Below are positions 11,369 through 63,431 of a stretch of 64,000 nucleotides of DNA, piece after piece; position 1 is the stretch's first letter, and the number at the start of each line of letters is the position of its first letter. This stretch comes from a virus. Taxonomy: Duplodnaviria > Heunggongvirae > Uroviricota > Caudoviricetes. The notes beneath the pieces were generated by a model. The model saw only the letters and a program-made list of their open reading frames with translations. It ran no database searches and had not been told where the DNA came from. The stretch is from positions 132,338 to 196,337 of the IMG/VR virus record IMGVR_UViG_3300028534_000001, one strand, 5' to 3'. The translations under genes were made by a program, and so were the position numbers.

Positions 11369-12196
11369 TTACCATTGAATTTTTTTAAATCTCATATCTT
11401 GAAAAGTATTTTGTTTAATATTAACATTTATAGTATTTTTAGAAGGTTTATTAGAATCTTCTCCTGTACTTATTCCTCCCCAATATTTACTACTTTCACC
11501 TACATTTAAATCAGTTTTTCCATAAATTTCTCTTATATCTAAAGGTGTATCATTTTTATCAATATCACAATAATGATAATCATAAAGAGTTATACTATGT
11601 TTTCCATTTTTAAAAGAAGCATAAATATAATTAGGATATATAGAATATTTCATTTTATTACCTTTTATTGAAGGTATATTATTATAAGATGTTTTATTAC
11701 CTATAAAATCAATAGCATTATAATTTATTTTATAAATTCTTCCTTCTTTTAAACTATTGGGAACATCAAAAGTAAAAGTATAAGGTCTTATACAAAAATG
11801 ATCTTTACTATATTCAGTTTTTATTTTTCCATCAGCTAATTTAAATGTTATTTTATATCTAGCATCTCTACTAATTTTATCAAATTTAGGAAATAAAAAA
11901 ATACCTATTCTTTTAACATTTCCAATTTTTTCATCTTTATTATTTACAATTGAAATATCATAAATTTTTATTATAGGACAAAATATTTGAATATTTTCAA
12001 AAGCACTTTTACCTTTTATTTTTGTTCCTATAATAGATAATATTTCATTTTTACATGAAACATCAACAACATTAACACATCTATGCATAATAGGATTAGT
12101 TTCTGGATGTTTGACATATGGGTGTTTTATGTTTGTATAATTTTCACTATATAAAAAACTAATCAAAATAACAATAAACATTAAAATTTTTTTCAT
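11369..12196 (-). CDS. secreted/membrane-anchored hypothetical protein
   Basis: The N-terminus has a hydrophobic signal/anchor MKKILMFIVILISFLYS. It overlaps the Sir2 gene by 4 nt (ATGA). Confidence 0.45.
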   Translation of the reverse strand: MKKILMFIVILISFLYSENYTNIKHPYVKHPETNPIMHRCVNVVDVSCKNEILSIIGTKIKGKSAFENIQIFCPIIKIYDISIVNNKDEKIGNVKRIGIFLFPKFDKISRDARYKITFKLADGKIKTEYSKDHFCIRPYTFTFDVPNSLKEGRIYKINYNAIDFIGNKTSYNNIPSIKGNKMKYSIYPNYIYASFKNGKHSITLYDYHYCDIDKNDTPLDIREIYGKTDLNVGESSKYWGGISTGEDSNKPSKNTINVNIKQNTFQDMRFKKIQW

Positions 12197-12903
12197 AATA
12201 TCCCCTTATTTTTTAATAATATTTCTAATTCTTTAGGGTTGCTACAATAATTATTATAACCTTTTCTATTATTTTTATCAACTAAAAAGGTCTCACAATT
12301 TGCAAATTTTGCTATTCCATCAATATCTATAACTATAGAACTACTACCTATTACAATTAACTTACTATTAGGGTTTTGTAAATATTCAAAAGCTCTTCTC
12401 ATATATGTATATAACCAAGCATATCCATTAAAAAATACAATATCAGGTTTTACTCCTTTTATACTATTACAATTTGGACATCTATCTTTTTCACAATCCC
12501 AATTTTTATATTTTATTTCAAATTTATTACCACAAGCTGTACATTCCATTTTAGTAATTTTACCATGTACATACATTGTAGGTATTTTTAATCTATCAAA
12601 AAAATCAGATATATTAGTTGTGATATTTATTAAAGTATCTTTATATTTATCATTTAATTTTTTTATAATATAATGATATTCATTACATTTAGAAGATTTT
12701 ATTTGATTTCTTAAAATATTATAAAATTCATGCATAACACAAAAATTTTTCTTCCAAGTTTTATCATTACAAACTATATCTTTGTTATATTTTTCCCAAA
12801 TAGAATCTTTTCCTCTAAATGTAGATAAACCAGACAAAATATCTAATCCTGCACCACTAAAAATTATAATTTTTTCACTACCATCATATCTAGGAATAAA
12901 CAT
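12193..12903 (-). CDS. Sir2-family NAD-dependent deacylase / ADP-ribosyltransferase
   Basis: GAGLDILSGLSTFRG is the Sir2 GAGIS..GIP.FR motif. The catalytic HG is present (YVHGKI). A zinc ribbon is formed by CTACG and CPNCNS. VIGSSSIV is also present. Confidence 0.7.
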   Translation of the reverse strand: MFIPRYDGSEKIIIFSGAGLDILSGLSTFRGKDSIWEKYNKDIVCNDKTWKKNFCVMHEFYNILRNQIKSSKCNEYHYIIKKLNDKYKDTLINITTNISDFFDRLKIPTMYVHGKITKMECTACGNKFEIKYKNWDCEKDRCPNCNSIKGVKPDIVFFNGYAWLYTYMRRAFEYLQNPNSKLIVIGSSSIVIDIDGIAKFANCETFLVDKNNRKGYNNYCSNPKELEILLKNKGIL

Positions 12904-14452: not shown

Positions 14453-15550
14453 TTAAATCTCCTTTTTATTTATTATAATTTTAATTTCATCAAATTCATA
14501 CCCAAGAGGCATTTCTAAATTTTTCATCATATTATATAATACATTTTCAGGAATAAATTTTCCTTCAGTTTCAAATCTGTATTTATTTCTAAAAAATAAT
14601 TCTTTAATTGGTGTTAATAAAGTAATAGCAATAGGTGAATGATTTTTTAGATTTGTTAACCATTTTCTTCTACTTTTCCAAGTCATATTAGTCATATCTA
14701 TAATAAAATCTTCATTTGAATTTTTTAATTCAGTAAATTTTTTAGAAACTCTTCTATCAATTTCTTTATGATCATCTTCAGTTAACATATTCCAACCATC
14801 ACTATATGTAGGATAACCTTTGCCTTTGCATTTATTACAAATTGAATGATCTAAATTATCACCTACATATCCTTCAATATAACCTTTGCCATTACAAAAA
14901 TTACAAATAAATTTTTCTTTGATATAATTCATCAAAATATTATCTCTACTTAAAACTTTTAAATTAGGTAAATTTTCCTTAATATAAGTTGATTTTCCAC
15001 TTAAAGGTGTTCCGATCATAATATAACATTTATTTTTTTTAACACCTCTTTTTATGTCTTTAAAATCAACAATGCATTCTTTTGCTTTTCTATTATTTTC
15101 ATTATCGAAAAAAATATTACCAGCTTTATCAAATAATGAAAAATTATATATTTTAAGATATTTATCAATATTTTTAGCAAAATAATGTTTTATTTGTTTT
15201 TCACTTTTTTGCCATAACATCCCGTGATAATTGATTGTATATAAAACATCTAAAATTTTATCTTTACCTAAAATTCTTTCAATATCATCAATATATTCTA
15301 ATGCTTCAAAAGTCGAAATACCTTCGTGACCTCTGTAATAATCTTTTCCATCTTTGTGAGTTTTAGCATTTGGTTTTCCCAAATCATGTAACAAACCAAC
15401 AATTTTATTAAAATCATCATTTGCTTTGCTAAATACAAGACAAGTATGAGTCCAAGTATCACCTTCTAAATGGTATTTTTCACTATGTAAAATAACATTT
15501 CTCAATTTTTCAAAATGATCTTTTTTTATTTTTTTAAATAATGTTTCCAT
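14453..15550 (-). CDS. HD-phosphohydrolase + T4 Pnk-type polynucleotide 5'-kinase fusion with DnaJ-type zinc-finger insert
   Basis: The N-terminal HD domain is marked by H..H and GLLHDLGKP. The C-terminal IMIGTPLSGKSTYI, SRDNI and DMTNMTWKSRRKW align to T4 Pnk IGCPGSGKSTWA, NRDDY and DTNLNPERRLAW. The insert carries CNFCNGKG and CNKCKGKG. Confidence 0.6.
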   Translation of the reverse strand: METLFKKIKKDHFEKLRNVILHSEKYHLEGDTWTHTCLVFSKANDDFNKIVGLLHDLGKPNAKTHKDGKDYYRGHEGISTFEALEYIDDIERILGKDKILDVLYTINYHGMLWQKSEKQIKHYFAKNIDKYLKIYNFSLFDKAGNIFFDNENNRKAKECIVDFKDIKRGVKKNKCYIMIGTPLSGKSTYIKENLPNLKVLSRDNILMNYIKEKFICNFCNGKGYIEGYVGDNLDHSICNKCKGKGYPTYSDGWNMLTEDDHKEIDRRVSKKFTELKNSNEDFIIDMTNMTWKSRRKWLTNLKNHSPIAITLLTPIKELFFRNKYRFETEGKFIPENVLYNMMKNLEMPLGYEFDEIKIIINKKEI

Positions 15551-16303: not shown

Positions 16304-17434
16304 TTAATTATCTAAATTTTTGATAAATTCTCTTGCTTTAGTAAGTTTAGAATTATCTTTTATTATTTTTTCTTTTAATAATTTATCTAAATCATTTTCA
16401 TTCTTTGCTTTCATTATAACTCCAAAATATGGGTATTTATTATATTTCATTGCAAATTCTTTTCTTTCCATATTTAGTTTTTCTTTAAAAAGATTTAAAC
16501 ATTTATTATATGTATGATTATAAAAATGTGAAACTTTGTTTGTTAATTCAGATATAATTTTATGTTTTTCACCTTTTAAATTTGATAAAATATCATCAAT
16601 TGTTTCATTTATAATATGTTCTATAAGTTTATTTTCAACTAATTCATTAGGTGATAATAATTTATGTAATGTAAAATACCACATTGTTTTAAATTTTCTA
16701 AAAGATGTTTTGAGTGGGTGATTATAATTTCTTACTACCCATCCTTCAATTCCTTCTTTTGTTTCTAGTAATTTTCTTAATTCTGATAATGTATAATTAT
16801 ATTTTTTTGCTAATTTTAAATTAAATTCTTTTGAAAAATGTTTTAAATCTTCATAATGTAAATATTCACCTGTAAATTTATTTCTTATTTGAATTAGTCT
16901 AAGTTCAAATTCTTCTTCATAATTAACAACAATTAAATTTTTCCACCCAACTAATTCAAAAAATGGAATAAATCCAATAAGTTTACAAGCTTTAATAAAA
17001 TTTAAATAATTTTCATTATTTTTAATAAATTTATTTGCTAAATCAGCTTGTTCTGAATAAAAAGAACCTTTAGTTCTAAGTAAAAAATTACCTTTTGAAG
17101 AAAATGTAGGAACAATTAAACTTCCATCTAATTTTTCCATAATTTCTAATTTATCATTATCATTCCAAGGTTTTTCTAATTCTTTATCAATAGTTAAAGG
17201 ATTTTCATTATCATTAAAAAATTTATGAAGACCTAACCATCTTTCTCCTGTATCCAAATTAAAACATAATCCTCTCATTTCTAATCTTTTAAAATCTTCA
17301 CTAAAATCGGTAAAACTTGCTAATCTATAATTAAAAATTCTAAATTTTTCTCCATCAAATTCCTCATCTTTATAATAAAAAGATTCATTATTTTCAACTA
17401 CTTTCATTGCTTCTTCTAAAGTTATTAAATTCAT
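16304..17434 (-). CDS. rnlA: RNA ligase 1 (T4 RnlA-like)
   Basis: At 376 aa it is close to T4 RnlA (374 aa). N-terminal FYYKDEEFDGEKFRIFNYRLASFTDF matches FFYSDDVS.GRTYRIFSYNYASYSDW. Motif I is EKLDGSL. Confidence 0.75.
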   Translation of the reverse strand: MNLITLEEAMKVVENNESFYYKDEEFDGEKFRIFNYRLASFTDFSEDFKRLEMRGLCFNLDTGERWLGLHKFFNDNENPLTIDKELEKPWNDNDKLEIMEKLDGSLIVPTFSSKGNFLLRTKGSFYSEQADLANKFIKNNENYLNFIKACKLIGFIPFFELVGWKNLIVVNYEEEFELRLIQIRNKFTGEYLHYEDLKHFSKEFNLKLAKKYNYTLSELRKLLETKEGIEGWVVRNYNHPLKTSFRKFKTMWYFTLHKLLSPNELVENKLIEHIINETIDDILSNLKGEKHKIISELTNKVSHFYNHTYNKCLNLFKEKLNMERKEFAMKYNKYPYFGVIMKAKNENDLDKLLKEKIIKDNSKLTKAREFIKNLDN

Positions 17435-17507: not shown

Positions 17508-18524
17508 TTAAATTTCTCTTTTTAAAATATCCCTTACTATTTCTTGAGCTGAAGGTCTTGCTAAATTTTGAATAATTTTTTTCTCGCCTTTATCTAATTC
17601 ATTAAATTTAGGATTATCTTTAATAAAATCTTCTAAAGCATCTTTGAAAAATAATCCTACAATTTTACCAAATTGTTTCCAATCTTTTTCAACTTCACCT
17701 TTTGAAAATAAATTATGAAGTCTATTAACTTCAAAGTATTTTGTAATTTCTTCTGCCCATTTTCTTTGTTCATCTGTAATTACAATTTGTTTTTTATTTT
17801 TAATTTTTTTAATTTTACCTTTTTCTTTAAATTTATCATTTTTATTTTTAAGAATAACTCTATCACCATTAGGCAATGTTTTATTAACTACTGGTTTAAT
17901 TACAACACCTTCACAAATATTTCCTTCTATAGGATTTAATCCATACAATTCAGGGATTTTTGTAGGAAATTCATTTGAAAATTGTAAACATTCTTCAAAT
18001 GTTCCTCTAAATAATTCTGGAACTACTTTAAATTCACAATTAAAAGCTAAATTTTTAACTTTATCCCATTCTAAAAATTCAGCATTTTCATCCTCATCAA
18101 CAGTCATAATATCAAAAACCATAAAATCAGTAAATGGAATATAATGAACTTCTTTTTGAATTTTTGTAAACCCTGGTTTAGTTTCACCATTAAAAATACC
18201 ACCAAAATGTTCTCCAAAAATTTGAACTTGTTTAATTTTTGGATTTTGTGAAATTAAAAAAGATGCAACTTTTTTAGCTGATTCTCTGTAATTTTCAAGC
18301 ATAATATCTGCATCATAAAATTTTTCTAATTCATTATCATTTAAAACAGATGTTCTTTTAGCAACTTTAACATTTTCTCCATCTGAAATGAAGCTAAAAT
18401 TTGTCCCGTGAATTTTTTCAGTAACTACCCATTCACAACAATCTATAATTCCACTTGTGATAATTCTTTTAATTTCTTTTTCTCTGTAAGAATTTTCAAT
18501 TGATGAATATTTTTTAAATTTCAT
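17508..18524 (-). CDS. rnlB: RNA ligase 2 (T4 Rnl2-like)
   Basis: MKFKKYSSIENSYREKEI...CEWVVTEKIHGTNFS is nearly identical to the T4 Rnl2 N-terminus and motif I EKIHGTN. At 338 aa it is close to T4 Rnl2 (334 aa). Confidence 0.8.
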   Translation of the reverse strand: MKFKKYSSIENSYREKEIKRIITSGIIDCCEWVVTEKIHGTNFSFISDGENVKVAKRTSVLNDNELEKFYDADIMLENYRESAKKVASFLISQNPKIKQVQIFGEHFGGIFNGETKPGFTKIQKEVHYIPFTDFMVFDIMTVDEDENAEFLEWDKVKNLAFNCEFKVVPELFRGTFEECLQFSNEFPTKIPELYGLNPIEGNICEGVVIKPVVNKTLPNGDRVILKNKNDKFKEKGKIKKIKNKKQIVITDEQRKWAEEITKYFEVNRLHNLFSKGEVEKDWKQFGKIVGLFFKDALEDFIKDNPKFNELDKGEKKIIQNLARPSAQEIVRDILKREI

Positions 18525-20406: not shown

Positions 20407-21039
20407 TCAAACTTTTTTAGGGGCTACTTTTCTAAATTCACTCATAAGATTATTAAAAATTGGTTTATATTTTTTATTTATACAATCCCATTCAAAATTA
20501 CAATTTTTATAATCTTTTAAAATTTCATCTAAAGATATATAATAAGGAAATTCATATGCTCTTTTATCATTTTTAGCAATAAATGTTGCCCAATATATTA
20601 GTCTTAAACTATGAAAAAGACTCTTAGCAGAAATTAAAATTTCATTATGTAAATTTAATTTTTTCTTTGCTTTTACATATGAATTATTAACTTTTTTAGA
20701 TATAAATTTTCTTAATTTTATTTTATCAATATCATTTATTAGTAAATTAAAATTATATTTTTTAATAGGATTTTTATTGAAAAACATTGCTAAAAACATG
20801 TCATTACATTCATTTATTAAATCTATTAAATTTTCTTCAGATATAATATGTATATCAATTTTTTTACTTTCATAAATATCATAATAAATATCTTTATAAT
20901 TAGTAATTATTAAAAAATCATAATCAGAATTTTCATTGTTTGAACCATATAATCTAGAACCATATTCATAAATTCCTAAAATATTTTCTTTTGATATATT
21001 ATAATTTTCTTTTAAAATTTTATATATTAAATTTTCCAT
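20407..21039 (-). CDS. pol-beta superfamily nucleotidyltransferase
   Basis: GSRLYGSNNENSDYDFLII is the GS...D.D nucleotidyltransferase motif. It is paralogous to 25218..26225. Confidence 0.5.
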   Translation of the reverse strand: MENLIYKILKENYNISKENILGIYEYGSRLYGSNNENSDYDFLIITNYKDIYYDIYESKKIDIHIISEENLIDLINECNDMFLAMFFNKNPIKKYNFNLLINDIDKIKLRKFISKKVNNSYVKAKKKLNLHNEILISAKSLFHSLRLIYWATFIAKNDKRAYEFPYYISLDEILKDYKNCNFEWDCINKKYKPIFNNLMSEFRKVAPKKV

Positions 21040-25192: not shown

Positions 25193-25221
25193 ATTATAAC
25201 AAAAAAGAAAGGAAAAGTCAA
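25193..25221 (-). promoter_or_regulatory. sigma70-type early promoter
   Basis: The attata element is at 25193-25198 and agtcaa at 25216-25221, with a 17 nt spacer. Confidence 0.7.
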
Positions 25222-26225
25222 GAACAAAATTCTTTTTTAAGCAATTTCATAAACATTTTTTCTAATTCATTCCAATTTGCTTTTTTAGGTAAATTTTCTT
25301 TTGCTACATCTTGAAGTTTTTCAAAATTTGCGAACTCAATTTCCATTTTTTCTTCTAATTCTTCAAGTGTAAATTCTAAATTTCTAATTTTTTTAAGTTC
25401 TTCAGCATTTTCTAATGGGAATTTTAACTGTTTTTTAACAATTAAATCTCTACCTTCTTCTAATAATCTAAATAAATGAAGAAAAAATTTAGCATCGTAT
25501 CCAAATTCTTTCCATTGTTCTGCTCTATGACTTGCACTAGTAATCTTTTCTTTCATCATTTTGTTTGCTTTTTTAATAAATAAATTTCTTGGAAATGTTA
25601 AATTACTTACAACAATTCCATCTTTTTTGAATAAATGTTTAAAAGGTGCAAATTCATTATAATGTTGAATTTCTCCAACTGTCATAATTCCATCGTGATT
25701 TTCAATAAATTTTTCAATTGTTTTTTGTAATGAAATTAAGTCTTTATAATTTACTGCTTTGTTTTTACCTTTTTTCATTTGACTTTTAGCATAACCCATA
25801 AATGAATGAAATACTCTTTGATTGATAAATAATTCACTATTATTTTGAAATTCTTCAAATTCTGGTGTATTGAATACAACTGCTTCAGGATTTGTATTGG
25901 CAAAAAGTAATTCTACAATGTTCGGATTTACATCTCCAGCTAATTTTAAAAATTTTTTTAATTCATAAACTTTACAATCTAATGCATCTTTTGTATTTTT
26001 ACCACTTTCATCTTTTACAACTTCTGATAAATCAACTTCTTCAACATTTTTAAAACCTAAGTGAAATTCAGGATTAGCTAAGAATACACCTAAAAAATCT
26101 ATGTCTGATTCAGGTGTATTTGTTCCATATAATTGACTACCACTTTTTGTCAAAAATAATAATCTCCCAAAAGGTTTAATTCTTTCTTTTACCATTTCTA
26201 AAATTTCTTGATTTGTTTTTAACAT
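25218..26225 (-). CDS. pol-beta superfamily nucleotidyltransferase
   Basis: LTKSGSQLYGTNTPESDIDFLGVF is the GS...D.D nucleotidyltransferase motif. 335 aa. Confidence 0.5.
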   Translation of the reverse strand: MLKTNQEILEMVKERIKPFGRLLFLTKSGSQLYGTNTPESDIDFLGVFLANPEFHLGFKNVEEVDLSEVVKDESGKNTKDALDCKVYELKKFLKLAGDVNPNIVELLFANTNPEAVVFNTPEFEEFQNNSELFINQRVFHSFMGYAKSQMKKGKNKAVNYKDLISLQKTIEKFIENHDGIMTVGEIQHYNEFAPFKHLFKKDGIVVSNLTFPRNLFIKKANKMMKEKITSASHRAEQWKEFGYDAKFFLHLFRLLEEGRDLIVKKQLKFPLENAEELKKIRNLEFTLEELEEKMEIEFANFEKLQDVAKENLPKKANWNELEKMFMKLLKKEFCS

Positions 26226-36052: not shown

Positions 36053-37420
36053 TTATTTTCTTTTTCTTTTAAATTCGTGAACATCATTAAACATAATTTG
36101 AACAATTTTATCACTTTGTTCAATTTGAATTATATGTTTTTCATCTTTAGATAATTCTAAAAATGTTTTCCCATCACACCAAATATGAAAAGGTTTTCTT
36201 GATTTTATTTTAATTGTTAAATTTTGAGGTTCTAAAACATAATGGATTTTTCTATTAGTTTTATCTCCTGTTATAACCCAATTATTTGAAGTTAAAGGTA
36301 AAATAACACCACCATTATTTTTATTTATACCAGTACTACCTTGAGCAGTTGATACAATTATACCACTACCTTTGAAATCTTCAATTTGTTCATCTTTATC
36401 ATCAACACTAAAATCAATCCAAGACGACATATCACCACCTATACATATTTCATTAAAAGCTAAATGCCAATTATTTTCATATTTTACTTTTAATAAATGT
36501 AGTGAAATAATTTCAGGATTTGATATATTTTCTTCTTTATTCATAAGAAAATTTAAAGTACCTTTTCCAACACCATAAAAAGGTTTGTTTTTAAAAGAAA
36601 ATTCTCTTATAGCAAGAAGCATTGTTCCATCACCACCATATACTTTAATAAAATTTGTATATTCTACTATTTTATAATATTTATCAAATGTTTTTAATTC
36701 CCAAATAATTTCACCCCAAAATTTCCATTCATTTAATAATTTGAATGTTTTTTCAAAAAGGTATTTTTTACCTAATTCTTTATTTTTTCTAATTTCTCTT
36801 GCGTGAATAACATTTCCATTATTAGTAAATTCTTCAATATTTTTAATGTGATATCCTTCTAATCCAAAAATAGTAGGATAATTACCGTGATATTTTTTAT
36901 TTTTATATTCAAAATCAATCTTATCGACATCTTTTAAATGTGAATATAAAATAATATTTTTTTTAGATGATATGTCTAAAATTTGTTTTTCTATATTTTC
37001 AAACCATTTATCCCAAGATTCATAGTCATTAGCTCCTATTATAATAGCATTTGGGTATATTTTTTCAATAATTTCTTTTCTTTGTTCAAAAGATAAAGGA
37101 TTTTTATCATCAAGTATTTTATTTATACTACCTATTACAATTATAGGTATTAAACCATCTTCAATAATTTTATTAACAATACTAGCATGTCCTTTGTGGA
37201 AAGGTTGAAATCTTCCTAGAAATAATCCATATTTTTGGTTATAATTTTCATCACATATAAAACTTTCAATAAAAAATTGACCTCCCATAGGAGTATCAGA
37301 ACCTACTTTAAATCCACATTTAGAACATTTATAAATAGTTACTCCATTTCCTTTATATTCTTCTTCAATTATTTCTCTATAATTTTTTGAATATATTCCA
37401 CATTTAGGACATTTATACAT
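36053..37420 (-). CDS. bifunctional NMN adenylyltransferase (NadM-type) / NAD kinase fusion with N-terminal zinc ribbon
   Basis: The N-terminus is CPKCG...CSKCG. GLFLGRFQPFHKGHASIV...IIVIGS matches the archaeal NadM motif GRFQPFH.GH...IG.GS. The C-terminal domain carries the NAD kinase motifs GGDGTMLLA, GVGKGTLNFL, NEICIGG and GIIVSTAQGSTGINKNNGGVILP. Confidence 0.7.
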   Translation of the reverse strand: MYKCPKCGIYSKNYREIIEEEYKGNGVTIYKCSKCGFKVGSDTPMGGQFFIESFICDENYNQKYGLFLGRFQPFHKGHASIVNKIIEDGLIPIIVIGSINKILDDKNPLSFEQRKEIIEKIYPNAIIIGANDYESWDKWFENIEKQILDISSKKNIILYSHLKDVDKIDFEYKNKKYHGNYPTIFGLEGYHIKNIEEFTNNGNVIHAREIRKNKELGKKYLFEKTFKLLNEWKFWGEIIWELKTFDKYYKIVEYTNFIKVYGGDGTMLLAIREFSFKNKPFYGVGKGTLNFLMNKEENISNPEIISLHLLKVKYENNWHLAFNEICIGGDMSSWIDFSVDDKDEQIEDFKGSGIIVSTAQGSTGINKNNGGVILPLTSNNWVITGDKTNRKIHYVLEPQNLTIKIKSRKPFHIWCDGKTFLELSKDEKHIIQIEQSDKIVQIMFNDVHEFKRKRK

Positions 37421-43515: not shown

Positions 43516-44901
43516 TTATTTATCTATATTTTCTCTAATTTTATCAAGTGTTATTTCGTTTTTTATTTCTCCATTCTCAAAAACAACTTTTAGCATATCA
43601 ATATCGTTAGGTTGTTTTTCACTTTCTTTAATACAGATAATTTTATCATTTCTTTTAACAGTAATTACTTTACCTTTTTTAGATTGTTTTTTACTATCTG
43701 TTATAGGATTTTTAAACACTTCAACTCCAACTTTTTTACTATCTATATTTCTTTCAATATAAGAACATTTCATAGCAAAACTAAATGTATCTCTATCAAT
43801 TCCAGTTTGCCCTAATTGTGTTCCACTACCAAAAACAAAATTTTCAGCTGCATATCCTCTTTCTGTAAATATTTTAAGGATGTTATCAATTGTTTCAGGA
43901 TTAACACCATCACCCCATAGCACGCTCGTCCAACTACTTGCTTTCTTTCCATTTATTTCAATATCAAAAACATTGTTTTTTTCCATAATTTCAAACATTT
44001 TAGAAATGACTTCAATTGGGTTTCCACTATCTGGACGAATAACAAATGTTTGATTATTTTTAATAATTGATTTTCTAATATTACTTTCAGGTTTTGTAAC
44101 TTCATTTGTAAAATTATAAATATCATAACTATCTGCCACAAATGATAGGATAGCACCTTCTTTATCATTTTCTCTAACCATTCTTTCAATAAATGCTATT
44201 TCTTTTTCAGTTGAACCTTCAGCGTTAGCAGTAGTTGAACTATGTTCCGACGCAAATACGCTAAAAGCGCTTATTTCAGAACTATAAAAATCTCTTGCGA
44301 ATTTAAGAGAATTAAAATTATCTGTCCCATAAAATACACAATTATGAGCGAAACCACTAATTGCTGCTGATTCTACACTTGTCATACTTCTATCCCCAAA
44401 GTTATGATAAGCAAATCTTGCCCATTCTTCACTTCCATATTTTTTAAGCATTTCAAAAACCTGTTTGCTTTTAGTTGTAATAACTGTAGGATACCATATT
44501 TTCATAAGTATTGTCTCCACCCATCCTACTATCCACGGAACATTTTCATCTGTGCTTTCTACTATTACAAGTGGAACACCAGGTTTAACTTTTACACCTT
44601 CTTCAATTGCTTTAATTTTAATAGGAAGTCTTCCATCAAGTTCTTTAGCAATATACATCCAACCATCATAATTAAAATCTATTCCGTGAAGTTTAGCAAA
44701 TTTTGCTGCTTCTTCTACCATTTCTGTAGTAATTCTTTGACTAAGATACCTTTTTAGGTAATATTGAAGACCACTCATAATAATTGTATCAGGACCTTTT
44801 CTTGCCTCGATATAATCATACATATAACACATATCTTTTGGGTATTGTTTATAATGACCATATTTATAAGAATCACTCATCATTACTATATTTTCAACCA
44901 T
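43516..44901 (-). CDS. nadV: nicotinamide phosphoribosyltransferase (NadV/NAMPT)
   Basis: SDSYKYGHYKQYP matches NAMPT TDSYKVTHYKQYP. ADSYDIYN, VIRPDSGNP, FGSG, KCSY and VFKNP..D..K.SKKG all match NAMPT signature blocks. The length is 461 aa. Confidence 0.85.
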   Translation of the reverse strand: MVENIVMMSDSYKYGHYKQYPKDMCYMYDYIEARKGPDTIIMSGLQYYLKRYLSQRITTEMVEEAAKFAKLHGIDFNYDGWMYIAKELDGRLPIKIKAIEEGVKVKPGVPLVIVESTDENVPWIVGWVETILMKIWYPTVITTKSKQVFEMLKKYGSEEWARFAYHNFGDRSMTSVESAAISGFAHNCVFYGTDNFNSLKFARDFYSSEISAFSVFASEHSSTTANAEGSTEKEIAFIERMVRENDKEGAILSFVADSYDIYNFTNEVTKPESNIRKSIIKNNQTFVIRPDSGNPIEVISKMFEIMEKNNVFDIEINGKKASSWTSVLWGDGVNPETIDNILKIFTERGYAAENFVFGSGTQLGQTGIDRDTFSFAMKCSYIERNIDSKKVGVEVFKNPITDSKKQSKKGKVITVKRNDKIICIKESEKQPNDIDMLKVVFENGEIKNEITLDKIRENIDK

Positions 44902-48761: not shown

Positions 48762-49304
48762 TTATTTATTTAATTGATATGCCCATTTTGTAAAAATAAA
48801 AATTGATTTCCAATCACTATTTTCAATAAGTTCATCTACATTTAACCAAATAATTTTCTCATCTTCATCTGCACCTACAAAGTCAACATTAGTTACATCA
48901 ACAACATAACCTTTTAACATTTGATTAGATTGAGTTGAAACCATTGTTTTACCTATATATGTAATATTTCTATTATCAACTTTATAACCAGCTTCTTCTT
49001 TAACTTCTTCAATGACAATTTTTTCAGGTTCAATATTTTTATCTAAACTTCCACCAAAAGCAGTAGCTAATCTTTTAATTCCTCTTTCATATAAAGGTGG
49101 TTTAATTTCTTGAATAAGACCAATTTTATCTTTGTTATTATCAATTAAAATAAAGGCAACACTATCAATACCTGCTCTTTCTGAATATAAGTAATAACCA
49201 TCTGCTTTTTTAATTTTCATAAAAGGTTCATTATTAAGGGGATTTTTGCTATCACTTTGCCAAATTATTTCAGGTTTTTCACTTTCCATTTTTTCTATAA
49301 TCAT
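48762..49304 (-). CDS. Nudix-like hydrolase (ADP-ribose pyrophosphatase-like)
   Basis: FGGSLDKNIEPEKIVIEEVKEEAGY is a degenerate Nudix box (GG...E.E....EE..EE.G). Confidence 0.45.
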   Translation of the reverse strand: MIIEKMESEKPEIIWQSDSKNPLNNEPFMKIKKADGYYLYSERAGIDSVAFILIDNNKDKIGLIQEIKPPLYERGIKRLATAFGGSLDKNIEPEKIVIEEVKEEAGYKVDNRNITYIGKTMVSTQSNQMLKGYVVDVTNVDFVGADEDEKIIWLNVDELIENSDWKSIFIFTKWAYQLNK

Positions 49305-53568: not shown

Positions 53569-54855
53569 TCATTCTATTACTTTGTCTTGATAATATTGAG
53601 CTTGTCCAAAAATATTTTTCTTAATATAATAATTATCAAATTCTGTTCTAATTATAATTCTATCAGGACTTGATTTTAAATTAGAAATTTGTTTTGACAT
53701 ATATTTAATATTATTTTCAAAACTATCTTTTGATGTATAAAAATTATTAAATTCAGTTTCAATTATAATTTTATCTTTAAAAGAATTTTTTGTAATTAAA
53801 TTTTTAATTCTAAATGATATATTATTTTCAAAGGCATCTTTTAATATATAAAAATCATTGAATTCTGTTCTAATTACAACTTTATCTTTACTATCAACAA
53901 TATCAATGGATTTATTCATAAATGTAATATTATTTATATAATCTGTTTTTAATAAATAATAATCGTCAAATTCTGTTCTAATTACAACTTTATCTTTACT
54001 ATCAACAATATCAATAGATTTATTCATAAATGTAATATTATTTACAAATTCTGTTTTTAATAAATAATAATCATCAAATTCTGTTCTAATTATTGTTCTA
54101 TCTTTTGAATTAACTATTATATCATCTTTTCTTAAATATTTTATATTTTTTATAAAAGAATCACTATATTTAAAAATATTATCAAATTCTGTTCTAATTA
54201 TTATATTATCTCTAATATTAGATAAATAAATATTTTTATCTATAAATCCAATGTCGTAAATAAAACCTTCTGATATTTTAAATTTAGATAAATCAGGTAA
54301 AACAAAATTATATTCTGGTTGACTTTCTGATGTTTCTTTAGGAATTTCAATAGAAAAATTTGTACCTACCAAAGGTATAGGAAATGTTATTTTATAATCA
54401 TCAAAATTATCTCCATTATAATTTCCGTAATATTTTATTACGACTTCTGCTTCAAAAGGTTCTTTGAAAGAATTTCTCCAATTTCCTTTTAAAGGGAATT
54501 TTATTAAAATTTCTTCTTCTTTATTGTTATATGCAAATGCAATAAATGTTGGTTCCCCATTTGGGGCATCTTTCCATAATTTTGACCAATCTTCTTCATA
54601 TAAATTTTGGAAATCATTTAAATTATTACCATTTTCTAATATTTTTTCTACATCTTCTTCAGGTAATCTATCAAGTCTTGAATCTTTGATACCTTCATAT
54701 ACTAATTTCCATTCTTTATCATCAAAGTCATAATAATACCATTTTAATAAATCTGTAGTTACTAATACTTTAGCGTTGATTGATACCTTACTTCTTAATT
54801 GAAAAATTTTATCAAATGGATACAAATCCACCAATCTTTTTGGTGTAAAAATCAT
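53569..54855 (-). CDS. repeat-containing protein (about 36 aa IIRTEFD..Y..K..F.NNI.FM.K repeats)
   Basis: At least six tandem peptide repeats are present. Two adjacent DNA copies at 53861..54076 are nearly identical. Confidence 0.45.
   Translation of the reverse strand: MIFTPKRLVDLYPFDKIFQLRSKVSINAKVLVTTDLLKWYYYDFDDKEWKLVYEGIKDSRLDRLPEEDVEKILENGNNLNDFQNLYEEDWSKLWKDAPNGEPTFIAFAYNNKEEEILIKFPLKGNWRNSFKEPFEAEVVIKYYGNYNGDNFDDYKITFPIPLVGTNFSIEIPKETSESQPEYNFVLPDLSKFKISEGFIYDIGFIDKNIYLSNIRDNIIIRTEFDNIFKYSDSFIKNIKYLRKDDIIVNSKDRTIIRTEFDDYYLLKTEFVNNITFMNKSIDIVDSKDKVVIRTEFDDYYLLKTDYINNITFMNKSIDIVDSKDKVVIRTEFNDFYILKDAFENNISFRIKNLITKNSFKDKIIIETEFNNFYTSKDSFENNIKYMSKQISNLKSSPDRIIIRTEFDNYYIKKNIFGQAQYYQDKVIE
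53861..54076. repeat. intragenic tandem direct repeat, 2 x about 108 bp, near-identical
   Basis: aattctgttctaattacaactttatctttactatcaacaatatcaat[g/a]gatttattcataaatgtaatattattta... occurs twice back to back. More diverged copies extend across about 53600-54250. Confidence 0.6.
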
Positions 54856-57386: not shown

Positions 57387-57803
57387 TTAATCCTTATATC
57401 CTTTAATTTCTCTAAGAACTTCTAGTTCAACTTTAAATTCTGGATGCATAGGATAATCAAAAATATTTTTATCAGAAAAATCCATTAACATAATACCATA
57501 CATTTCTGAAAATAAATGTTCAGCATTTGCAAATCTTTTAAAAATATTATTAAATTCAAAAACATTAGCTTCATACAAATAGAAACCAGTTTTAGGATTT
57601 AATCTGTCGTCTTTAATTTGTTTAAGTCTATCTTTATTTAGATTAAAATTTATTTCTTCTAATGTTTCTCTAAGTATAGCATCAATTGGATTTTCATTAA
57701 CATCTAATTCAATTTTACCACCAGGTAATCCTATAATGTTATCGTGTCTATAAATTGTTACTAATCTTTTATTATATACAATTGCTACAAATACATTTTC
57801 CAT
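57387..57803 (-). CDS. Nudix hydrolase (MutT-like box)
   Basis: LPGGKIELDVNENPIDAILRETLEE matches MutT FPGGKIEMGETPEQAVVRELQEE. Confidence 0.55.
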   Translation of the reverse strand: MENVFVAIVYNKRLVTIYRHDNIIGLPGGKIELDVNENPIDAILRETLEEINFNLNKDRLKQIKDDRLNPKTGFYLYEANVFEFNNIFKRFANAEHLFSEMYGIMLMDFSDKNIFDYPMHPEFKVELEVLREIKGYKD

Positions 57804-58958: not shown

Positions 58959-59780
58959 TTAAATTTTTAATAATTTTTCAAATTCTGTTCTAACTCTTTC
59001 AGGATTAGCTTTTTTCATCATATAATCAAAATTTCTTCTAGCTGCTTCTAAAGTTCCTTTAATAGGTTTAAATCCTTTTTTAATAAATTTATATACTCTA
59101 ATAACTCTTAATGCATCTTCGTTTATTCTATCTTCAGGTTTTCCTATAAATGAAAATTCTTTATTTAAACAATGTCTAATACCTCTTTTAGAAGAGTCAA
59201 TAATAATATTTGTTTTTAAATCAAAATATAAAGCATTGATAGTAAAATCTCTTCTTTGCCAATCATCTTCTAAATTACCAAAATTGACTTCATCTGCTCC
59301 CAATCCTTTTGATTTATTATAAACATCTTTTCTAAATGTTGCTATTTCAAATGATTCTTTTGCTTTAATCATAATAACACCAAAATGTTCTCCAACTAAA
59401 TCTAATTTAATATCTTCATCTTTTAAAATATCAACAATTTCATTAGGTTTTAAATTTGTAACTAGATCAATATCTTTTGGTTTTAAACCTGCTAAAATAT
59501 CCCTAACAAACCCTCCTACAATATAAACATTACCTTTTTCTAAAAGTTTTTCAATCCATTTATTTTCTTTTTTAAATTGATTAGAATTATCTTTTAAATT
59601 TAAATATCTTTCAAATAATAAATCAAATTCTTTTAAATTTGTTTCTTCTAAAATTTTTAGTGGATTTTTATCTAATTTTTTTAAAAATTCTTTTTCAAAA
59701 ATCTTAGAATTATCATTAGTAAATTCAATACCATTTTTAAAAGCTAATTCTCTAAATTTTTCTAAAATATAATTTTTCAT
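58959..59780 (-). CDS. compact tRNA nucleotidyltransferase (CCA-adding / polyA polymerase head domain)
   Basis: YIVGGFVRDILAGLKPKDIDLVT matches GGAVRD.LLG....D.D. FEIATFRKDVY matches EVTTFR.E. QRRDFTINAL matches RRDFT.NA. The protein is only 273 aa, with an extra N-terminal segment of about 80 aa. Confidence 0.7.
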   Translation of the reverse strand: MKNYILEKFRELAFKNGIEFTNDNSKIFEKEFLKKLDKNPLKILEETNLKEFDLLFERYLNLKDNSNQFKKENKWIEKLLEKGNVYIVGGFVRDILAGLKPKDIDLVTNLKPNEIVDILKDEDIKLDLVGEHFGVIMIKAKESFEIATFRKDVYNKSKGLGADEVNFGNLEDDWQRRDFTINALYFDLKTNIIIDSSKRGIRHCLNKEFSFIGKPEDRINEDALRVIRVYKFIKKGFKPIKGTLEAARRNFDYMMKKANPERVRTEFEKLLKI

Positions 59781-60248: not shown

Positions 60249-61913
60249 TTAAGAAATATAATTTAAAAATTTCTTATTTATTTTATCAATTGATATATCA
60301 TAATCAAAATTTTCTAGAGTGTTTTTAATTGATTTTATATCATTTGATTTCACAAATAATGCATCGTGAATTCTTACACTTACAAGATTTAAAAGTGATG
60401 ATAATTCTTTCATCACTCTTTCCTCTCTTTTAGTATATTCCACAAATACAATATTGTCTTCATTAACACTCTTATCTTTTAATTCCTTATTATAAAACTT
60501 CAATTTATTTTCTACATAAAAATTTTTAAATTTAACATAAGTATCCTCTATAGCTTTCCCATAATTTTTTATAAATTCAATTGTTTCATTGTCTAATCTA
60601 TTAGTAAAATAATAAGGAACAAATTCTGCTGGCATTCCATTCATAATACTAATCCAATAAGTTTTTAATGTCTTCCTAGATTTTTTAAACATTTTTCTTT
60701 TGTTTTCATTTTGAATTTGAATTTTAGAAGCAATGTCTTGAGAAATTTCATCTAATTTATTATAAGCATTTTCAAGCACATTACTTCTAAAGAACTTTTT
60801 TTCATTATCCTTTAATAATTGAAAATTAGAAAATTTTAAATCAATTTCATATGTGAATCCCATAAAAGAAAGAACAATCGTTCTTAGTTCTTTATGTAAT
60901 TGAGTAAATAAATTATATTCTCTACCTTGGTTTTGATACTCAGTACTTAGAATACAGTTATCCTCTATTCCTTTTATAACTTTTTCAACTTGCATAATAT
61001 GACTGTTTAATTTATTTATCTTACCTTTAATAGCATCTTTTTGAAAATCTTCTAAATCTTTAGTTAAAGCAATTTCATATTTTCTAATTTTATTTTCTAA
61101 AGTTTTTTTATAACCATTTAAAACATCTTCTAATTTTAAATTTTTAGAATTTTTAATTACTTCACTAAATTCTTCTTTAGAAATTTCATCTTTTTTAAAC
61201 ATATTTTTAGCTACTTTTGTTAAATCTTCTCCTGATAAATAAGGTTTTTCAATTTCATATTTTCTTAAATAACAACTATTTATATTTTGAGTAAAATCTT
61301 TTTTATCTAAATCAATAACTTTATAATTTCTTTTTAATAATAAAGACATTCTAATAGAAGTAGCATTATAATTATATTCTTGATTTTTATATAAAAATTC
61401 TCTAGCATCTTCATATTTTTTATTAGCTATTAAATTAAAATATTCTATAGATTTATTATAATTCATAAATGTAAATTTTATAAAAGGTAATAAATTATAT
61501 GCATTAGCAATTCTTTCTTCTTCATCTTTAGTAGGATATCCTTTTATTTTAGATAAATAAAATTCTAAAATTCTAGCAACTTTGTTAGTTGAAAATTGTT
61601 TTTGGTTCTCTAAAATAGTCCCTAAAAACATACCATTGTAAATATAGTGCTCTTCTGCAAAGTAAATTTTTAAAGCTAACATAATAAGTTTTTTGTGTGA
61701 TTTTTTAATAAGAGAGTTGAATTTATTTTCTTCAATATGATGTTCTAATTCTTTGTTTATTATAGGAACAGGAACAATTAAATTAGAAAATACTTCGTCA
61801 GTAGAATTAAATTCACCCCAAAGTTTAACGTCATTTAAAGCTTTAGCGTGAATATTGTTTTTTCTTTTCCAATTTTTTCTAGCAATTTTTTTATATAATT
61901 TATTTTTATCCAT
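60249..61913 (-). CDS. hypothetical protein (554 aa), flanked by inverted promoter-like repeats
   Basis: It is a long ORF. RIHDALFV lies near the C-terminus. No family was recognised. Confidence 0.45.
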   Translation of the reverse strand: MDKNKLYKKIARKNWKRKNNIHAKALNDVKLWGEFNSTDEVFSNLIVPVPIINKELEHHIEENKFNSLIKKSHKKLIMLALKIYFAEEHYIYNGMFLGTILENQKQFSTNKVARILEFYLSKIKGYPTKDEEERIANAYNLLPFIKFTFMNYNKSIEYFNLIANKKYEDAREFLYKNQEYNYNATSIRMSLLLKRNYKVIDLDKKDFTQNINSCYLRKYEIEKPYLSGEDLTKVAKNMFKKDEISKEEFSEVIKNSKNLKLEDVLNGYKKTLENKIRKYEIALTKDLEDFQKDAIKGKINKLNSHIMQVEKVIKGIEDNCILSTEYQNQGREYNLFTQLHKELRTIVLSFMGFTYEIDLKFSNFQLLKDNEKKFFRSNVLENAYNKLDEISQDIASKIQIQNENKRKMFKKSRKTLKTYWISIMNGMPAEFVPYYFTNRLDNETIEFIKNYGKAIEDTYVKFKNFYVENKLKFYNKELKDKSVNEDNIVFVEYTKREERVMKELSSLLNLVSVRIHDALFVKSNDIKSIKNTLENFDYDISIDKINKKFLNYIS

Positions 61914-62128: not shown

Positions 62129-62290
62129 ATATTCTTTTCTTTTTTCTATATATAATTATACAATTTTAAAATTGAATTAGAAATAATATATTCTTTTCTT
62201 CTTTCTATATATAATTATACAATTTTAAAATTGAATTAGAAATAATATATTCTTTTCTTCTTTCTATATATAATTATACAATTTTAAATT
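62129..62290 (-). repeat. tandem direct repeat, about 2.7 x 58 bp, each unit with a -10-like TATAAT but no TTGACT
   Basis: The unit atattcttttcttctttctatatataattatacaattttaaaattgaattagaaataat occurs at about 62129, 62187 and 62246. The third copy is truncated and overlaps the stop of 62274..63080. Confidence 0.6.
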
Positions 62291-63080
62291 CTTCTTCATT
62301 GATATACTTATCAAATAATTCTGGTTTATAATCTTCAAGTAATTCACTCCAAGTTCTAATTCTACTTCTTTCTACTGAACCATTATTTGTTTCTTTCATA
62401 TAAAGTTCTTTTTTACAAAATGTCCCATACTTAAACCATTTAGGACTATCTCCAAAACTTTTACCTGTTTTTTCATAAGCTAAAGTAATTTGTTCATTTG
62501 CTGTTTTACCTAGGAGTTCTTTATGACTGCAATATGCTTGTGCAAACCCTGTTTTAGCATTTCTAAAAACATCGTGATTTCTCCATTTGAAATTTTCAAA
62601 AACTTCTTCAAATGTTTCAACACCATAAACTCTAGCGTCAAAAAATGCTTCAAATCTTTTACTTACAATTGTATCAAGATATTTTAAATCATTTTCATTA
62701 TTTTTATAATATTCAATTTCATATTCCCAAAAAGCATTAAATTCTTTTGTAGCAAATGCTGATAATAGACTTGCCATCTTTTGAGTTCTACCAGCAAAAG
62801 GGTGTGTCTGTTTAGCATTACATTTAAGAAAATAAAGTGTAATTTCATCAGAACCTGTATATCCTAAATTAGCATTGAATTTATTTGCTAATGCTACCAT
62901 TGTATTAACCATAACTTTACCCAAAATTTCATCATAAGGTTTTTTCAAACCTTTTGTAAATTTACTAAATTTATGTCCATCAAGTCTAACAATTAAGTGA
63001 TAATCATTTGGAATTTGAGTTTCAAATTTTTTTTCTTGTTTTTTAAAAATATTATTTTTTGTGATAATTTTTTCTTTCAA
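62274..63080 (-). CDS. Thg1-like protein (tRNA-His guanylyltransferase / tRNA 5'-end repair family)
   Basis: YHLIVRLDGHKFSKFTKG..KPYDE matches Thg1 VVVRLDGRNFHRF....KPND. LGYTGSDEITLYF matches AYGQSDEYSFVF, which holds the catalytic acidic residues. Confidence 0.7.
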   Translation of the reverse strand: MKEKIITKNNIFKKQEKKFETQIPNDYHLIVRLDGHKFSKFTKGLKKPYDEILGKVMVNTMVALANKFNANLGYTGSDEITLYFLKCNAKQTHPFAGRTQKMASLLSAFATKEFNAFWEYEIEYYKNNENDLKYLDTIVSKRFEAFFDARVYGVETFEEVFENFKWRNHDVFRNAKTGFAQAYCSHKELLGKTANEQITLAYEKTGKSFGDSPKWFKYGTFCKKELYMKETNNGSVERSRIRTWSELLEDYKPELFDKYINEEEFKIV

Positions 63081-63167
63081 TTTTTCTCCTTAATGTTTAA
63101 AACTAATATTATATATTTTAAAAAATGTTTAATAAATTTTTGTCTTTTATTAAATATATTTATTAAA

Positions 63168-63402: not shown

Positions 63403-63431
63403 ATTATACTAAAAATAAAAAGAAAAGTCAA
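63403..63431 (-). promoter_or_regulatory. sigma70-type early promoter
   Basis: The attata element is at 63403-63408 and agtcaa at 63426-63431, with a 17 nt spacer. Confidence 0.7.

Follow-up and report, generated by a model that had tools for sequence, protein, structure and literature searches.

The window, by which we mean the whole 64-kb stretch of DNA analysed here, forms part of a phage-like contig of 207–222 kb, a jumbo-phage genome of 20% G+C that carries a gene for a Thg1-like protein (TLP) and, dispersed around it, genes for enzymes of RNA repair (Table 1). No DNA-level match to positions 40000–64000 of the window was found among 50,697 phage records, and annotation could thus not be borrowed from a close relative. 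The TLP gene begins with TTG (63078–63080), behind a strong ribosome-binding site, and the start is well supported because the orthologs of the near-identical phage contig L163, and of L003 and L004, have ATG at the equivalent N-terminal position. Its frame is intact, and selection on it is purifying: comparison with orthologs that are 82% and 65% identical gives dN/dS of 0.26 and 0.20, respectively.

Table 1. Features of the window discussed in the text
Feature	Positions	Strand	Details	Basis
HD-motif N-terminal region with C-terminal P-loop polynucleotide-kinase-like domain, putative end-healing enzyme	14453..15550	minus		
Rnl1-like RNA ligase	16304..17434	minus		Pfam RNA_lig_T4_1, E=2e-20
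Rnl2-like RNA ligase	17508..18524	minus		Pfam RNA_ligase, E=2e-26; T4_Rnl2_C, E=5e-13
RlaP-family (RNA ligase-associated Pol-beta) nucleotidyltransferase, short paralog	20407..21039	minus		
RlaP-family nucleotidyltransferase, long paralog	25218..26225	minus		Pfam RlaP, E=2e-22
Truncated class II CCA-adding/poly(A) polymerase-like nucleotidyltransferase	58959..59780	minus	273 aa; 2.5 kb downstream of TLP gene	
59-bp tandem repeat	62129..62305	none	2.7–3 copies, 98–99% identical	
Thg1-like protein (TLP) gene	62274..63080	minus	268 aa, TTG start	ORF and profile matches
Shine-Dalgarno-like AAGGAG	63086..63091	minus	5-nt spacer to TLP TTG start	Read from sequence
Candidate sigma-70-like promoter, TTGACT-17-TATAAT	63403..63431	minus	Upstream of 66-aa ORF and TLP gene	

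The candidate promoter agrees with the sigma-70-like consensus at 11 of 12 positions; scanning around the TLP gene returned 45 such sites against 44.2 in shuffled sequence, no excess, and it is for this reason a candidate only. Promoter and terminator scans near the gene are uninformative at 20% G+C. At the other end, the TLP stop codon is overlapped by the last copy of the 59-bp repeat, an array that separates the gene from an ORF of 554 aa. The minus strand of the repeat has TTTAAAATTGTATAATTATATATAG, an extended –10-like element (three matches, 0.06 expected), and in the near-identical phage L163 the array comprises just 2.1 copies of 86% identity. An Rfam scan of the whole 64-kb window gave no match.

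The 554-aa ORF, which lies between the TLP and CCA-like genes, was considered as a partner of the TLP and rejected: in its relatives it adjoins genes for UvsW, gp32, a 5'–3' exonuclease or DNA ligase, not for a TLP. By eye, it has motifs resembling A, B and C of family-A polymerases, conserved in its relatives, of which there are just five among 1.84 billion representatives. It has no match in Pfam, PHROG or NCBIfam, and none in the PDB by sequence or profile; hhalign comparison with T7 RNA polymerase and T7 DNA polymerase gave probabilities of ~0.1%, and a single-sequence AF2 model was unusable (pLDDT 36). The idea that it is a divergent family-A polymerase is unsupported.

An earlier, sequence-only reading had recognized the core of the Thg1/TLP family in the ORF at 62274–63080, and the core is there: VRLDGHKF is residues 31–38, KPYD is 47–50 and GYTGSDE is 73–79. 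Pfam PF04446 matches with 91.3 bits, well above its gathering cut-off of 29.2 (E=6.2e-26; profile positions 5–127 of 130), and PHROG 4717, ‘tRNA-His guanylyltransferase’, matches with E=5.9e-48 (positions 9–243 of 250). The best relative by sequence among solved structures is the TLP of Bacillus thuringiensis (BtTLP; PDB 4kgk, E=2.8e-19). Residues were equated by alignment to this protein, and read with the roles assigned in PMC3701042. The three catalytic carboxylates are all present (D34=BtD30/hD29; D78=BtD75/hD76; E79=BtE76/hE77), as are the residues of the activation step (K47=BtK43/ScK44; S77=BtS74, ScThg1 S75/76) and those of nucleotidyl transfer (R32=BtR28, ScThg1 R27; K101=ScK96; R150=BtR131/ScR133). 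E16 aligns with BtE12.

These residues are also the ones that the family keeps. Across 161 homologs—TLPs from 80 viral and 80 genome loci—R32, D34, P48, S77, D78, E79, D148, R167, D170 and N174 are invariant; E16 is invariant wherever its column is not a gap; K101 and R150 are present in all but one; and position 47 is K or R. The AF2 model is confident (pLDDT 92.3, pTM 0.89), and its top 32 Foldseek matches in the PDB are Thg1/TLP chains without exception: BtTLP, Thg1 of C. albicans, human and yeast, and the TLP of M. acetivorans, its complexes with tRNA included. The fold is thus that of the family, a palm domain like the one in canonical polymerases. All 32 have probability 1.00 and target-normalized TM of 0.64–0.79, and the next matches are worse than E=7e-3. 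Judged from sequence and fold, the ORF almost certainly encodes a Thg1-like protein, predicted to be catalytically competent. The earlier reading had named two results that would count against it, a missing PF04446 match and missing carboxylates, and it survives on both since the match is significant and D34, D78 and E79 are in place.

The HINNLYN motif is characteristic of eukaryotic-type Thg1. It is absent from the phage protein, which has VFRN-AKTGF in its place in alignments to 5xox and 3wbz, and there is no equivalent of ScThg1 N161, the position being occupied by G178 in the phage TLP and by M158 in BtTLP. Eukaryotic Thg1 (yeast, Candida, human; PDB 5XOX, 3WBZ, 3OTB, 7CV1) has the same fold, two-metal active site and 3'–5' chemistry, but its similarity is weaker (E=3e-8 and 9e-7 for the fungal structures). 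BtTLP (PDB 4KGK/4KGM; PMC3701042) is the best relative by fold as well (Foldseek E=1e-15). It has in common with the phage TLP the three carboxylates, the activation-site Lys and Ser, and the transfer-site Arg, Lys and Arg, and likewise lacks both HINNLYN and an Asn at the N161 position. On these sequence features, the phage protein belongs with the bacterial TLPs and not with Thg1 of the eukaryotic type, and with HINNLYN absent the database name ‘tRNA-His guanylyltransferase’ is not to be taken literally. The missing motif and N161 equivalent lead us to expect templated repair, rather than non-templated addition of G-1 opposite A73. By analogy with the biochemistry of BtTLP and MaTLP (PMC3701042, PMC4820378), we infer that 5'-truncated tRNAs would be repaired under the direction of Watson–Crick pairing.

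The phage protein differs from BtTLP in being phage-encoded, in its identity of just ~25–30%, in a segment between K101 and D148 that is ~15 residues longer and is modeled as an extended long helix (99–128) plus a second helix (132–140), and in having Ser instead of His at residue 39. Neither of the last two sets it apart. Segments of the ‘long’ class are found in ~40% of the viral TLPs and in ~25% of those from genomes, and at the position of Ser39 the family divides about equally between Ser and His, the latter being the residue in BtTLP and Thg1.

Such proteins had been described in the earlier reading as rarely reported in phages, and this does not hold. By tblastn, 160 phage records of GenBank contain a relative, most of these being annotated as tRNA-His guanylyltransferase; at least 592 viral contigs of IMG/VR carry a Thg1-family gene; PHROGs holds a dedicated family, PHROG 4717; and the gene was noted in phages Bc431v3 (2013) and XacN1 (2018). 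Members of PHROG 4717 include Bacillus phage Bc431v3 gp143, Xanthomonas phage XacN1 ORF126/585, and proteins of Cronobacter phage GAP32 and of Erwinia and Yersinia jumbo phages. Like the present phage, these have large or jumbo genomes that also encode CCA-adding enzymes, RNA ligases and PNK, but the TLP is no more than 38% identical to that of any deposited phage. Only in four metagenomic clusters (P0002–P0005) does identity reach 69–82%; all others are at 48% or less. In Iyer et al. 2021 (PMC7824862), the RNA-repair set of jumbo phages consists of Thg1, RlaP, RNA ligases and the CCA-adding enzyme, and Thg1 is given the very role that is proposed here, RNA repair. Our literature search found no paper in which a phage TLP was assayed. 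The protein is a divergent but ordinary member of the phage Thg1/TLP branch, and its interpretation is already in the literature.

The tRNA-repair theme that the earlier reading saw around the TLP is borne out at the scale of the window, which encodes in the same 64 kb an Rnl1-like and an Rnl2-like ligase, an HD/kinase-like protein, two RlaP proteins and a CCA-adding-like enzyme. The putative end-healing enzyme matches Pfam AAA_33 (E=2e-8), PHROG 505 ‘polynucleotide kinase’ (E=1e-9) and, over its full length, PHROG 6931; its PDB match to Pnkp1 is weak, and its H..HD..H motif was seen by eye only. The short RlaP paralog exceeds the Pfam cut-offs for RlaP (E=3e-5) and NTP_transf_2 (E=1e-4), with Polbeta (E=9.1e-6) just below its own; in related phages (L001–L004), the ortholog of the long paralog and the TLP gene are 7.5–10 kb apart. 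The CCA-like protein matches Pfam PolyA_pol (E=8e-28), the NCBIfam CCA and PcnB models matching far below their cut-offs, and by eye it has the motifs GGFVRD, DID and EDDWQRRD. CCA-adding enzymes in the PDB align to it over just their first ~200–240 residues, and it thus lacks the body and tail domains. Components of the phage RNA-repair repertoire (Iyer et al. 2021; Burroughs & Aravind 2016)—ligases, end-healing kinase, RlaP and CCA enzyme—therefore co-occur with the TLP in this phage.

They do not, on the other hand, adjoin it. A distance of 36–48 kb separates the TLP gene from those for the ligases, kinase and RlaP proteins, the CCA-like gene alone being near, and the immediate neighbors of the TLP gene are not conserved in its closest relatives (the 82% and 65% orthologs); the window thus gives no sign of operon-level linkage. 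Among 300 ORFs within ~1.9 kb of TLP genes at 79 IMG/VR loci, the recurrent families included 15 Metallophos, five RNA_ligase, three RlaP, five HD and HD_4, two HAD_SAK_2, two 2H phosphoesterases and four AAA_33 and KTI12 kinases. These are modest, raw counts without a background set, the repair families occur at a minority of the 79 loci, and genes of NAD and nucleotide metabolism are mixed among the neighbors. When the window's own proteins were searched by tblastn against 82 TLP loci, RlaP was found at 10, Rnl1 at four, HD/kinase at three and CCA at three.

What might such an enzyme do for the phage? Probably it is a 3'–5' RNA nucleotidyltransferase that forms one arm of a dispersed phage RNA-repair set and restores the 5' ends of tRNAs. 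Its reaction can be pictured from relatives that have been solved and characterized kinetically. In the first step, ATP or GTP would activate the 5'-monophosphate of a 5'-truncated tRNA, with K47 and S77 positioning the activating nucleotide, and D34 and D78 holding two Mg2+ ions. In the second, the 3'-OH of an incoming NTP, selected because it forms a Watson–Crick pair with the acceptor stem's 3' strand, would attack the activated 5' end; R32, K101 and R150 would bind the triphosphate of this NTP, and E16 and E79 would brace the arginines. The cycle would then repeat until the acceptor stem reached full length. The other members of the set would be the HD/kinase end-healing protein, the Rnl1-like and Rnl2-like ligases, the two RlaP proteins and the CCA-adding-like enzyme, and together they would keep host tRNAs usable in the face of damage by host or competitor nucleases during infection, the TLP replacing lost 5' nucleotides.

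The healing-and-sealing pair of phage T4, Pnkp and Rnl1, is a functional analogue of this arrangement, not a homolog: a phage countermeasure that restores damaged host tRNA. The window, too, has genes for ligases of the Rnl1-like and Rnl2-like kinds and for a polynucleotide-kinase-like protein; unlike the T4 enzymes, which mend a break in the anticodon loop, the TLP would, by analogy, rebuild an acceptor stem that has lost 5' nucleotides.

A different use of the same chemistry, and in our view an unlikely one, is maturation of tRNA-His, in which the TLP would add G-1, templated by C73, to the tRNA-His of phage or host. TLPs from bacteria and archaea can add G-1 opposite C73 in vitro, which counts for this idea. 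So do the names given to most phage homologs, tRNA-His guanylyltransferase, and the suggestion of tRNA modification in the papers on Bc431v3 and XacN1. Against it, neither the 64-kb window nor another ~19 kb of flanking sequence (~83 kb of the 207–222 kb) yielded a tRNA gene, a search that leaves ~125–140 kb of genome in which one for tRNA-His could lie; HINNLYN is missing from the phage protein; and of 161 tRNA genes located no more than 10 kb from a TLP gene, at 80 viral loci, just two are for tRNA-His. One of these two (L077) clearly encodes G-1 opposite C73, as in bacteria, and needs no guanylyltransferase since the encoded G-1 is left in place by RNase P. In the other (L071) the status of G-1 is ambiguous.

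Substrates other than tRNA come into question, too. The TLP might remodel RNA 5' ends in general—those of rRNA fragments, phage transcripts, or ligation substrates for the phage Rnl1 and Rnl2—and non-tRNA substrates have been reported for bacterial TLPs, the natural substrates of which are unsettled. The stretch of window and flanks free of tRNA genes would suit such a role, as would the generic end-healing enzymes (Metallophos, HD, 2H, kinases) beside phage TLP genes. Yet the whole protein, including the C-terminal region past the palm domain, aligns with TLPs crystallized with tRNA (5axm, 5axn), a CCA-adding-like gene is close by, and tRNA genes occur within 10 kb at 19 of the 80 viral TLP loci, so that we regard general remodeling as distinctly unlikely.

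Very improbable is a palm-domain enzyme of signalling or anti-defence that makes or sequesters nucleotide messengers, conceivable by analogy with GGDEF, Cas10 and mCpol. The palm fold of Thg1 is common to GGDEF and Cas10 polymerases (PMC2904730), Foldseek returns weak matches to Cas10 and cyclases, and anti-CBASS Acb1 is among the nearest ORFs of phage TLP genes (5 of 150), with Apyc1 also nearby. But full-length, high-scoring similarity is to TLPs only, the Cas10 and cyclase matches being partial and at least eight orders of magnitude weaker, and the TLP residues that handle RNA and NTP are all conserved. That the gene is a decaying or inactive copy without function, as its non-ATG start and the varied neighborhood among relatives might hint, is scarcely credible given its intact frame, strong ribosome-binding site, full complement of catalytic residues, dN/dS and confidently predicted structure.

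Returning to the repair of tRNA 5' ends, whether these are the true substrate, and counter-defence the biological role, is by our inference about an even call. The earlier reading had gone on to suggest that the host, or a competing element, attacks tRNA 5' ends or acceptor stems; going by the class of the enzyme, this is plausible. Among the defence nucleases of bacteria, we are aware of none that takes nucleotides off the 5' end of tRNA. A bolder version is that the TLP and the truncated CCA-like enzyme act as a pair, and rebuild both strands of the acceptor end following the action of some undescribed nuclease, from host or competitor, that trims tRNA termini. We give this little credence; were it true, no phage counter-defence known before would have acted at tRNA 5' ends, and a new class of tRNA-directed immunity would be implied.

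What the gene adds is a divergent phage TLP inside an unusually complete arsenal of RNA repair and NAD salvage, in a jumbo phage of 20% G+C. A phage reliant on its TLP could lead the way to a nuclease by which the 5' ends of tRNAs are damaged, but in this respect the gene is nothing special, and any of hundreds of phage TLPs would do just as well.

The Thg1-like gene of the window is a single ORF of 268 aa. It matches the Pfam Thg1 family PF04446 with E=6.2e-26 (91.3 bits; cut-off 29.2), PHROG 4717 ('tRNA-His guanylyltransferase') with E=5.9e-48 across almost the entire profile, and the Thg1-like protein (TLP) of Bacillus thuringiensis (BtTLP; PDB 4kgk) with E=2.8e-19; no NCBIfam model matched it. 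A sequence-only reading had quoted the core motifs, VRLDGHKF (residues 31–38), KPYD (47–50) and GYTGSDE (73–79), and these are indeed present. The assignment is confirmed and far beyond chance. The start codon is TTG (63078–63080), preceded by AAGGAG (63086–63091) with a 5-nt spacer. The same codon is ATG (8893..8895) in L163, an ENA contig near-identical to the window; its TLP differs from the window's at a few N-terminal residues. Because ATG occupies the equivalent position there and in two remoter relatives (L003 and L004), we regard the start as sound.

Residue roles were taken from the BtTLP structure paper (PMC3701042) by aligning the two proteins residue by residue. By this alignment the catalytic carboxylates are all present: D34 and D78, which bind metal (D30 and D75 in BtTLP; D29 and D76 in human Thg1), and a third, E79. 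K47 and S77 would serve the activation step, R32, K101 and R150 nucleotidyl transfer, and E16 would be the bracing glutamate. In an alignment of 161 sequences, taken from 80 loci in viruses and 80 in genomes, R32, D34, P48, S77, D78, E79, D148, R167, D170 and N174 are invariant; K101 and R150 are kept in 160, E16 is kept wherever a residue occupies that column, and position 47 is Lys or Arg. An AlphaFold2 model built from a 41-sequence alignment (mean pLDDT 92.3, pTM 0.89) gave, as its best 32 Foldseek matches in the PDB, Thg1/TLP chains without exception, including BtTLP, the Candida albicans, yeast and human Thg1 proteins, and the Methanosarcina acetivorans TLP with and without tRNA. That the ORF belongs to the Thg1/TLP enzyme class is, we believe, close to certain.

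Judged by sequence, this is a TLP-type protein, much closer to BtTLP (E=3e-19) than to fungal Thg1 (E=3e-8 and 9e-7). The HINNLYN of yeast Thg1 is replaced by VFRN-AKTGF in the query, and the position of yeast N161 is G178 in the query and M158 in BtTLP. Two apparent oddities proved ordinary. Residue 39 is Ser, whereas BtTLP and Thg1 have His, but the family alignment divides into 82 His and 79 Ser; and the K101–D148 segment, some 15 residues longer than in BtTLP, belongs to a common 'long' class that makes up ~40% of viral TLPs.

Features of the window and of the adjoining phage sequence
Feature	Position	Strand	Remarks
Sir2	12193..12903		NAD+ set
Kinase-like protein	14453..15550		365 aa; P-loop polynucleotide-kinase-like C-terminus; N-terminal H..HD..H motif by eye only
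Rnl1-like ligase	16304..17434		
Rnl2-like ligase	17508..18524		with T4 Rnl2 C-terminal domain
RlaP nucleotidyltransferase	20407..21039		RNA ligase-associated, Pol-beta
RlaP nucleotidyltransferase	25218..26225		
NMNAT-NAD kinase fusion	36053..37420		NAD+ set
NAMPT	43516..44901		NAD+ set
Nudix	48762..49304		NAD+ set
ORF adjoining tail-fibre-like ORF	53569..54855		428 aa
108-bp in-frame tandem repeat	53807..54200	minus	~3 copies, 81–88% identity
Nudix	57387..57803		NAD+ set
CCA-like protein	58959..59780	minus	class II; 273 aa; head and neck domains only
ORF between TLP and CCA-like genes	60249..61913	minus	554 aa
59-bp tandem repeat	62129..62305		2.7–3 copies, 98–99% identity
TLP gene	62274..63080	minus	268 aa
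Second NMNAT-like gene and anti-Pycsar Apyc1-like phosphodiesterase	L163 821..2376		just past window end

The sequence-only reading also saw a tRNA-repair theme around the gene, and since two ligases, a kinase-like protein, two RlaP proteins and a CCA-adding/poly(A)-polymerase-like (CCA-like) protein share the same 64 kb, it was right to do so. Of these, the CCA-like gene alone is a close neighbour of the TLP gene, 2.5 kb from it; the rest are 36–48 kb distant. The CCA-like protein consists of an N-terminal extension of ~80 aa followed by head and neck (motifs GGFVRD, DID and EDDWQRRD), and lacks the tRNA-binding body and tail domains of 400-aa class II enzymes. Across ~83 kb of this phage—the window plus the L163 and L166 flanks—there are these repair genes, TLP included, yet no tRNA gene and no Rfam family. 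In a related phage (L008), Rnl1 (55% identity) and HD/kinase (45%) genes lie within ~7 kb of the TLP gene, and there are 19 tRNA genes.

Similar company is kept elsewhere. Raw counts for 300 ORFs on the same strand, each 120 aa or longer and within ~1.9 kb of TLP genes at 79 IMG/VR loci, were Metallophos 15, NUDIX 7, RNA_ligase 5, Acb1 5, HD and HD_4 5, PRPP synthase 4, RlaP 3, NMNAT-like 3, and two each of HAD_SAK_2, 2H phosphoesterase, AAA_33, KTI12 kinases and NAPRTase. When window proteins were searched by tblastn against 82 TLP loci, RlaP was found at 10, Rnl1 at four, and HD/kinase and CCA at three each; two loci (L067 and L078) have the order TLP, RlaP, CCA within 5 kb. On these raw counts, TLP genes are genuinely, though only partly, associated with genes for RNA end healing and sealing.

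The 554-aa ORF beside the TLP gene belongs to a very rare family, with five relatives in 1.84 billion protein representatives. Its conserved segments (GFxYExDLKxxxFQLL, KxxKxxxxxxxNGG and RxHDA) resemble by eye motifs A, B and C of family-A polymerases, in order and spacing; profile, PDB and hhalign searches gave this idea no support. Because the relatives' copies adjoin genes for UvsW helicase, gp32, 5'-3' exonuclease or DNA ligase, a role in DNA replication is likelier for it than partnership with TLP. The final copy of the 59-bp repeat overlaps the TLP stop codon, and the repeat contains a minus-strand extended -10-like element (TGTATAAT / TTTAAAATTGTATAATTATATATAG). The L163 repeat comprises no more than 2.1 copies, 86% identical, so the triplication is recent.

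G+C content is 18–23% from end to end of the window, and the substantial ORFs are all on the minus strand. No tRNA gene and no Rfam match was found in the 64 kb, and none of 50,697 phage records matched positions 40000–64000 at the DNA level. An identical TLP protein is present on a 222,650-bp JGI contig, the 554-aa protein on a 207,484-bp ENA contig near-identical to the window, and the nearest TLP relatives, among the matches listed, are on IMG/VR viral contigs. A tail-fibre-like protein has partial matches to phage tail fibres. We conclude that the source is an uncultivated jumbo phage. The 108-bp repeat codes for recurring '...IIRTEFD.YY..K...' units, in a protein that matched no family.

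Although its annotation and context are correct, the sequence-only reading was wrong that such genes are rarely reported in phages. Relatives, all at most 38% identical, were found by tblastn in 160 deposited phage genomes—of Bacillus, Prevotella, Caulobacter and Mycobacterium phages, and of Erwinia, Yersinia, Cronobacter and Serratia jumbo phages—and pattern scans confirmed at least 592 in IMG/VR and at least 567 in GTDB genomes. A 2013 paper termed the gene unusual in Bacillus phage Bc431v3, one of 2018 counted it with the tRNA-processing genes of XacN1, and Iyer et al. in 2021 (PMC7824862) described Thg1 as the enzyme restoring 5' nucleotides. Given these numbers and papers, the claim of rarity is unsupported, and our functional reading is the one already published. 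We found no paper on phage TLPs with an enzyme assay.

Most relatives in the 160 genomes are annotated 'tRNA-His guanylyltransferase', a name that should not be taken literally here. Maturation of tRNA-His, by addition of G-1, is the main rival to the reading favored below, but an unlikely task for this TLP. The window and ~19 kb of flanks from the same phage have no tRNA genes; tRNA-His accounts for only two of the 161 tRNA genes that lie up to 10 kb from viral TLP genes (19 of 80 loci have tRNA genes), and is absent from arrays of 19, 23 and 28 tRNAs (L008, L037 and L047). One of the tRNA-His genes (L077) has a genomic G at -1, facing C73, with CCA after it; this is the bacterial arrangement, which makes a guanylyltransferase unnecessary. 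The other gene (L071) is ambiguous. With ~83 kb of this phage covered, a minor part of the genome, these findings lend the role little support. Remodelling of 5' ends other than those of tRNA is likewise unlikely. Beyond the Thg1/TLP chains, Foldseek matched Cas10 and adenylyl cyclase palm domains, weaker by at least eight orders of magnitude, and we think a signalling role very improbable. Selection on the gene is purifying (dN/dS 0.26 and 0.20 against orthologs of 82% and 65% identity), and that it is an inactive copy is scarcely credible.

The reading we favor is that TLP is a templated 3'-5' nucleotidyltransferase that would refill lost 5' nucleotides of tRNA acceptor stems, using ATP or GTP to activate the 5' phosphate and then adding NTPs chosen by pairing with the 3' strand. 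It would be the member of the phage's RNA-repair set that serves 5' ends. Whether tRNA 5' ends are its substrate and counter-defence its role is, in our estimation, evenly balanced. The dense set of NAD+ and anti-signalling genes is consistent with the countering of NAD+-depleting and cyclic-nucleotide defences.
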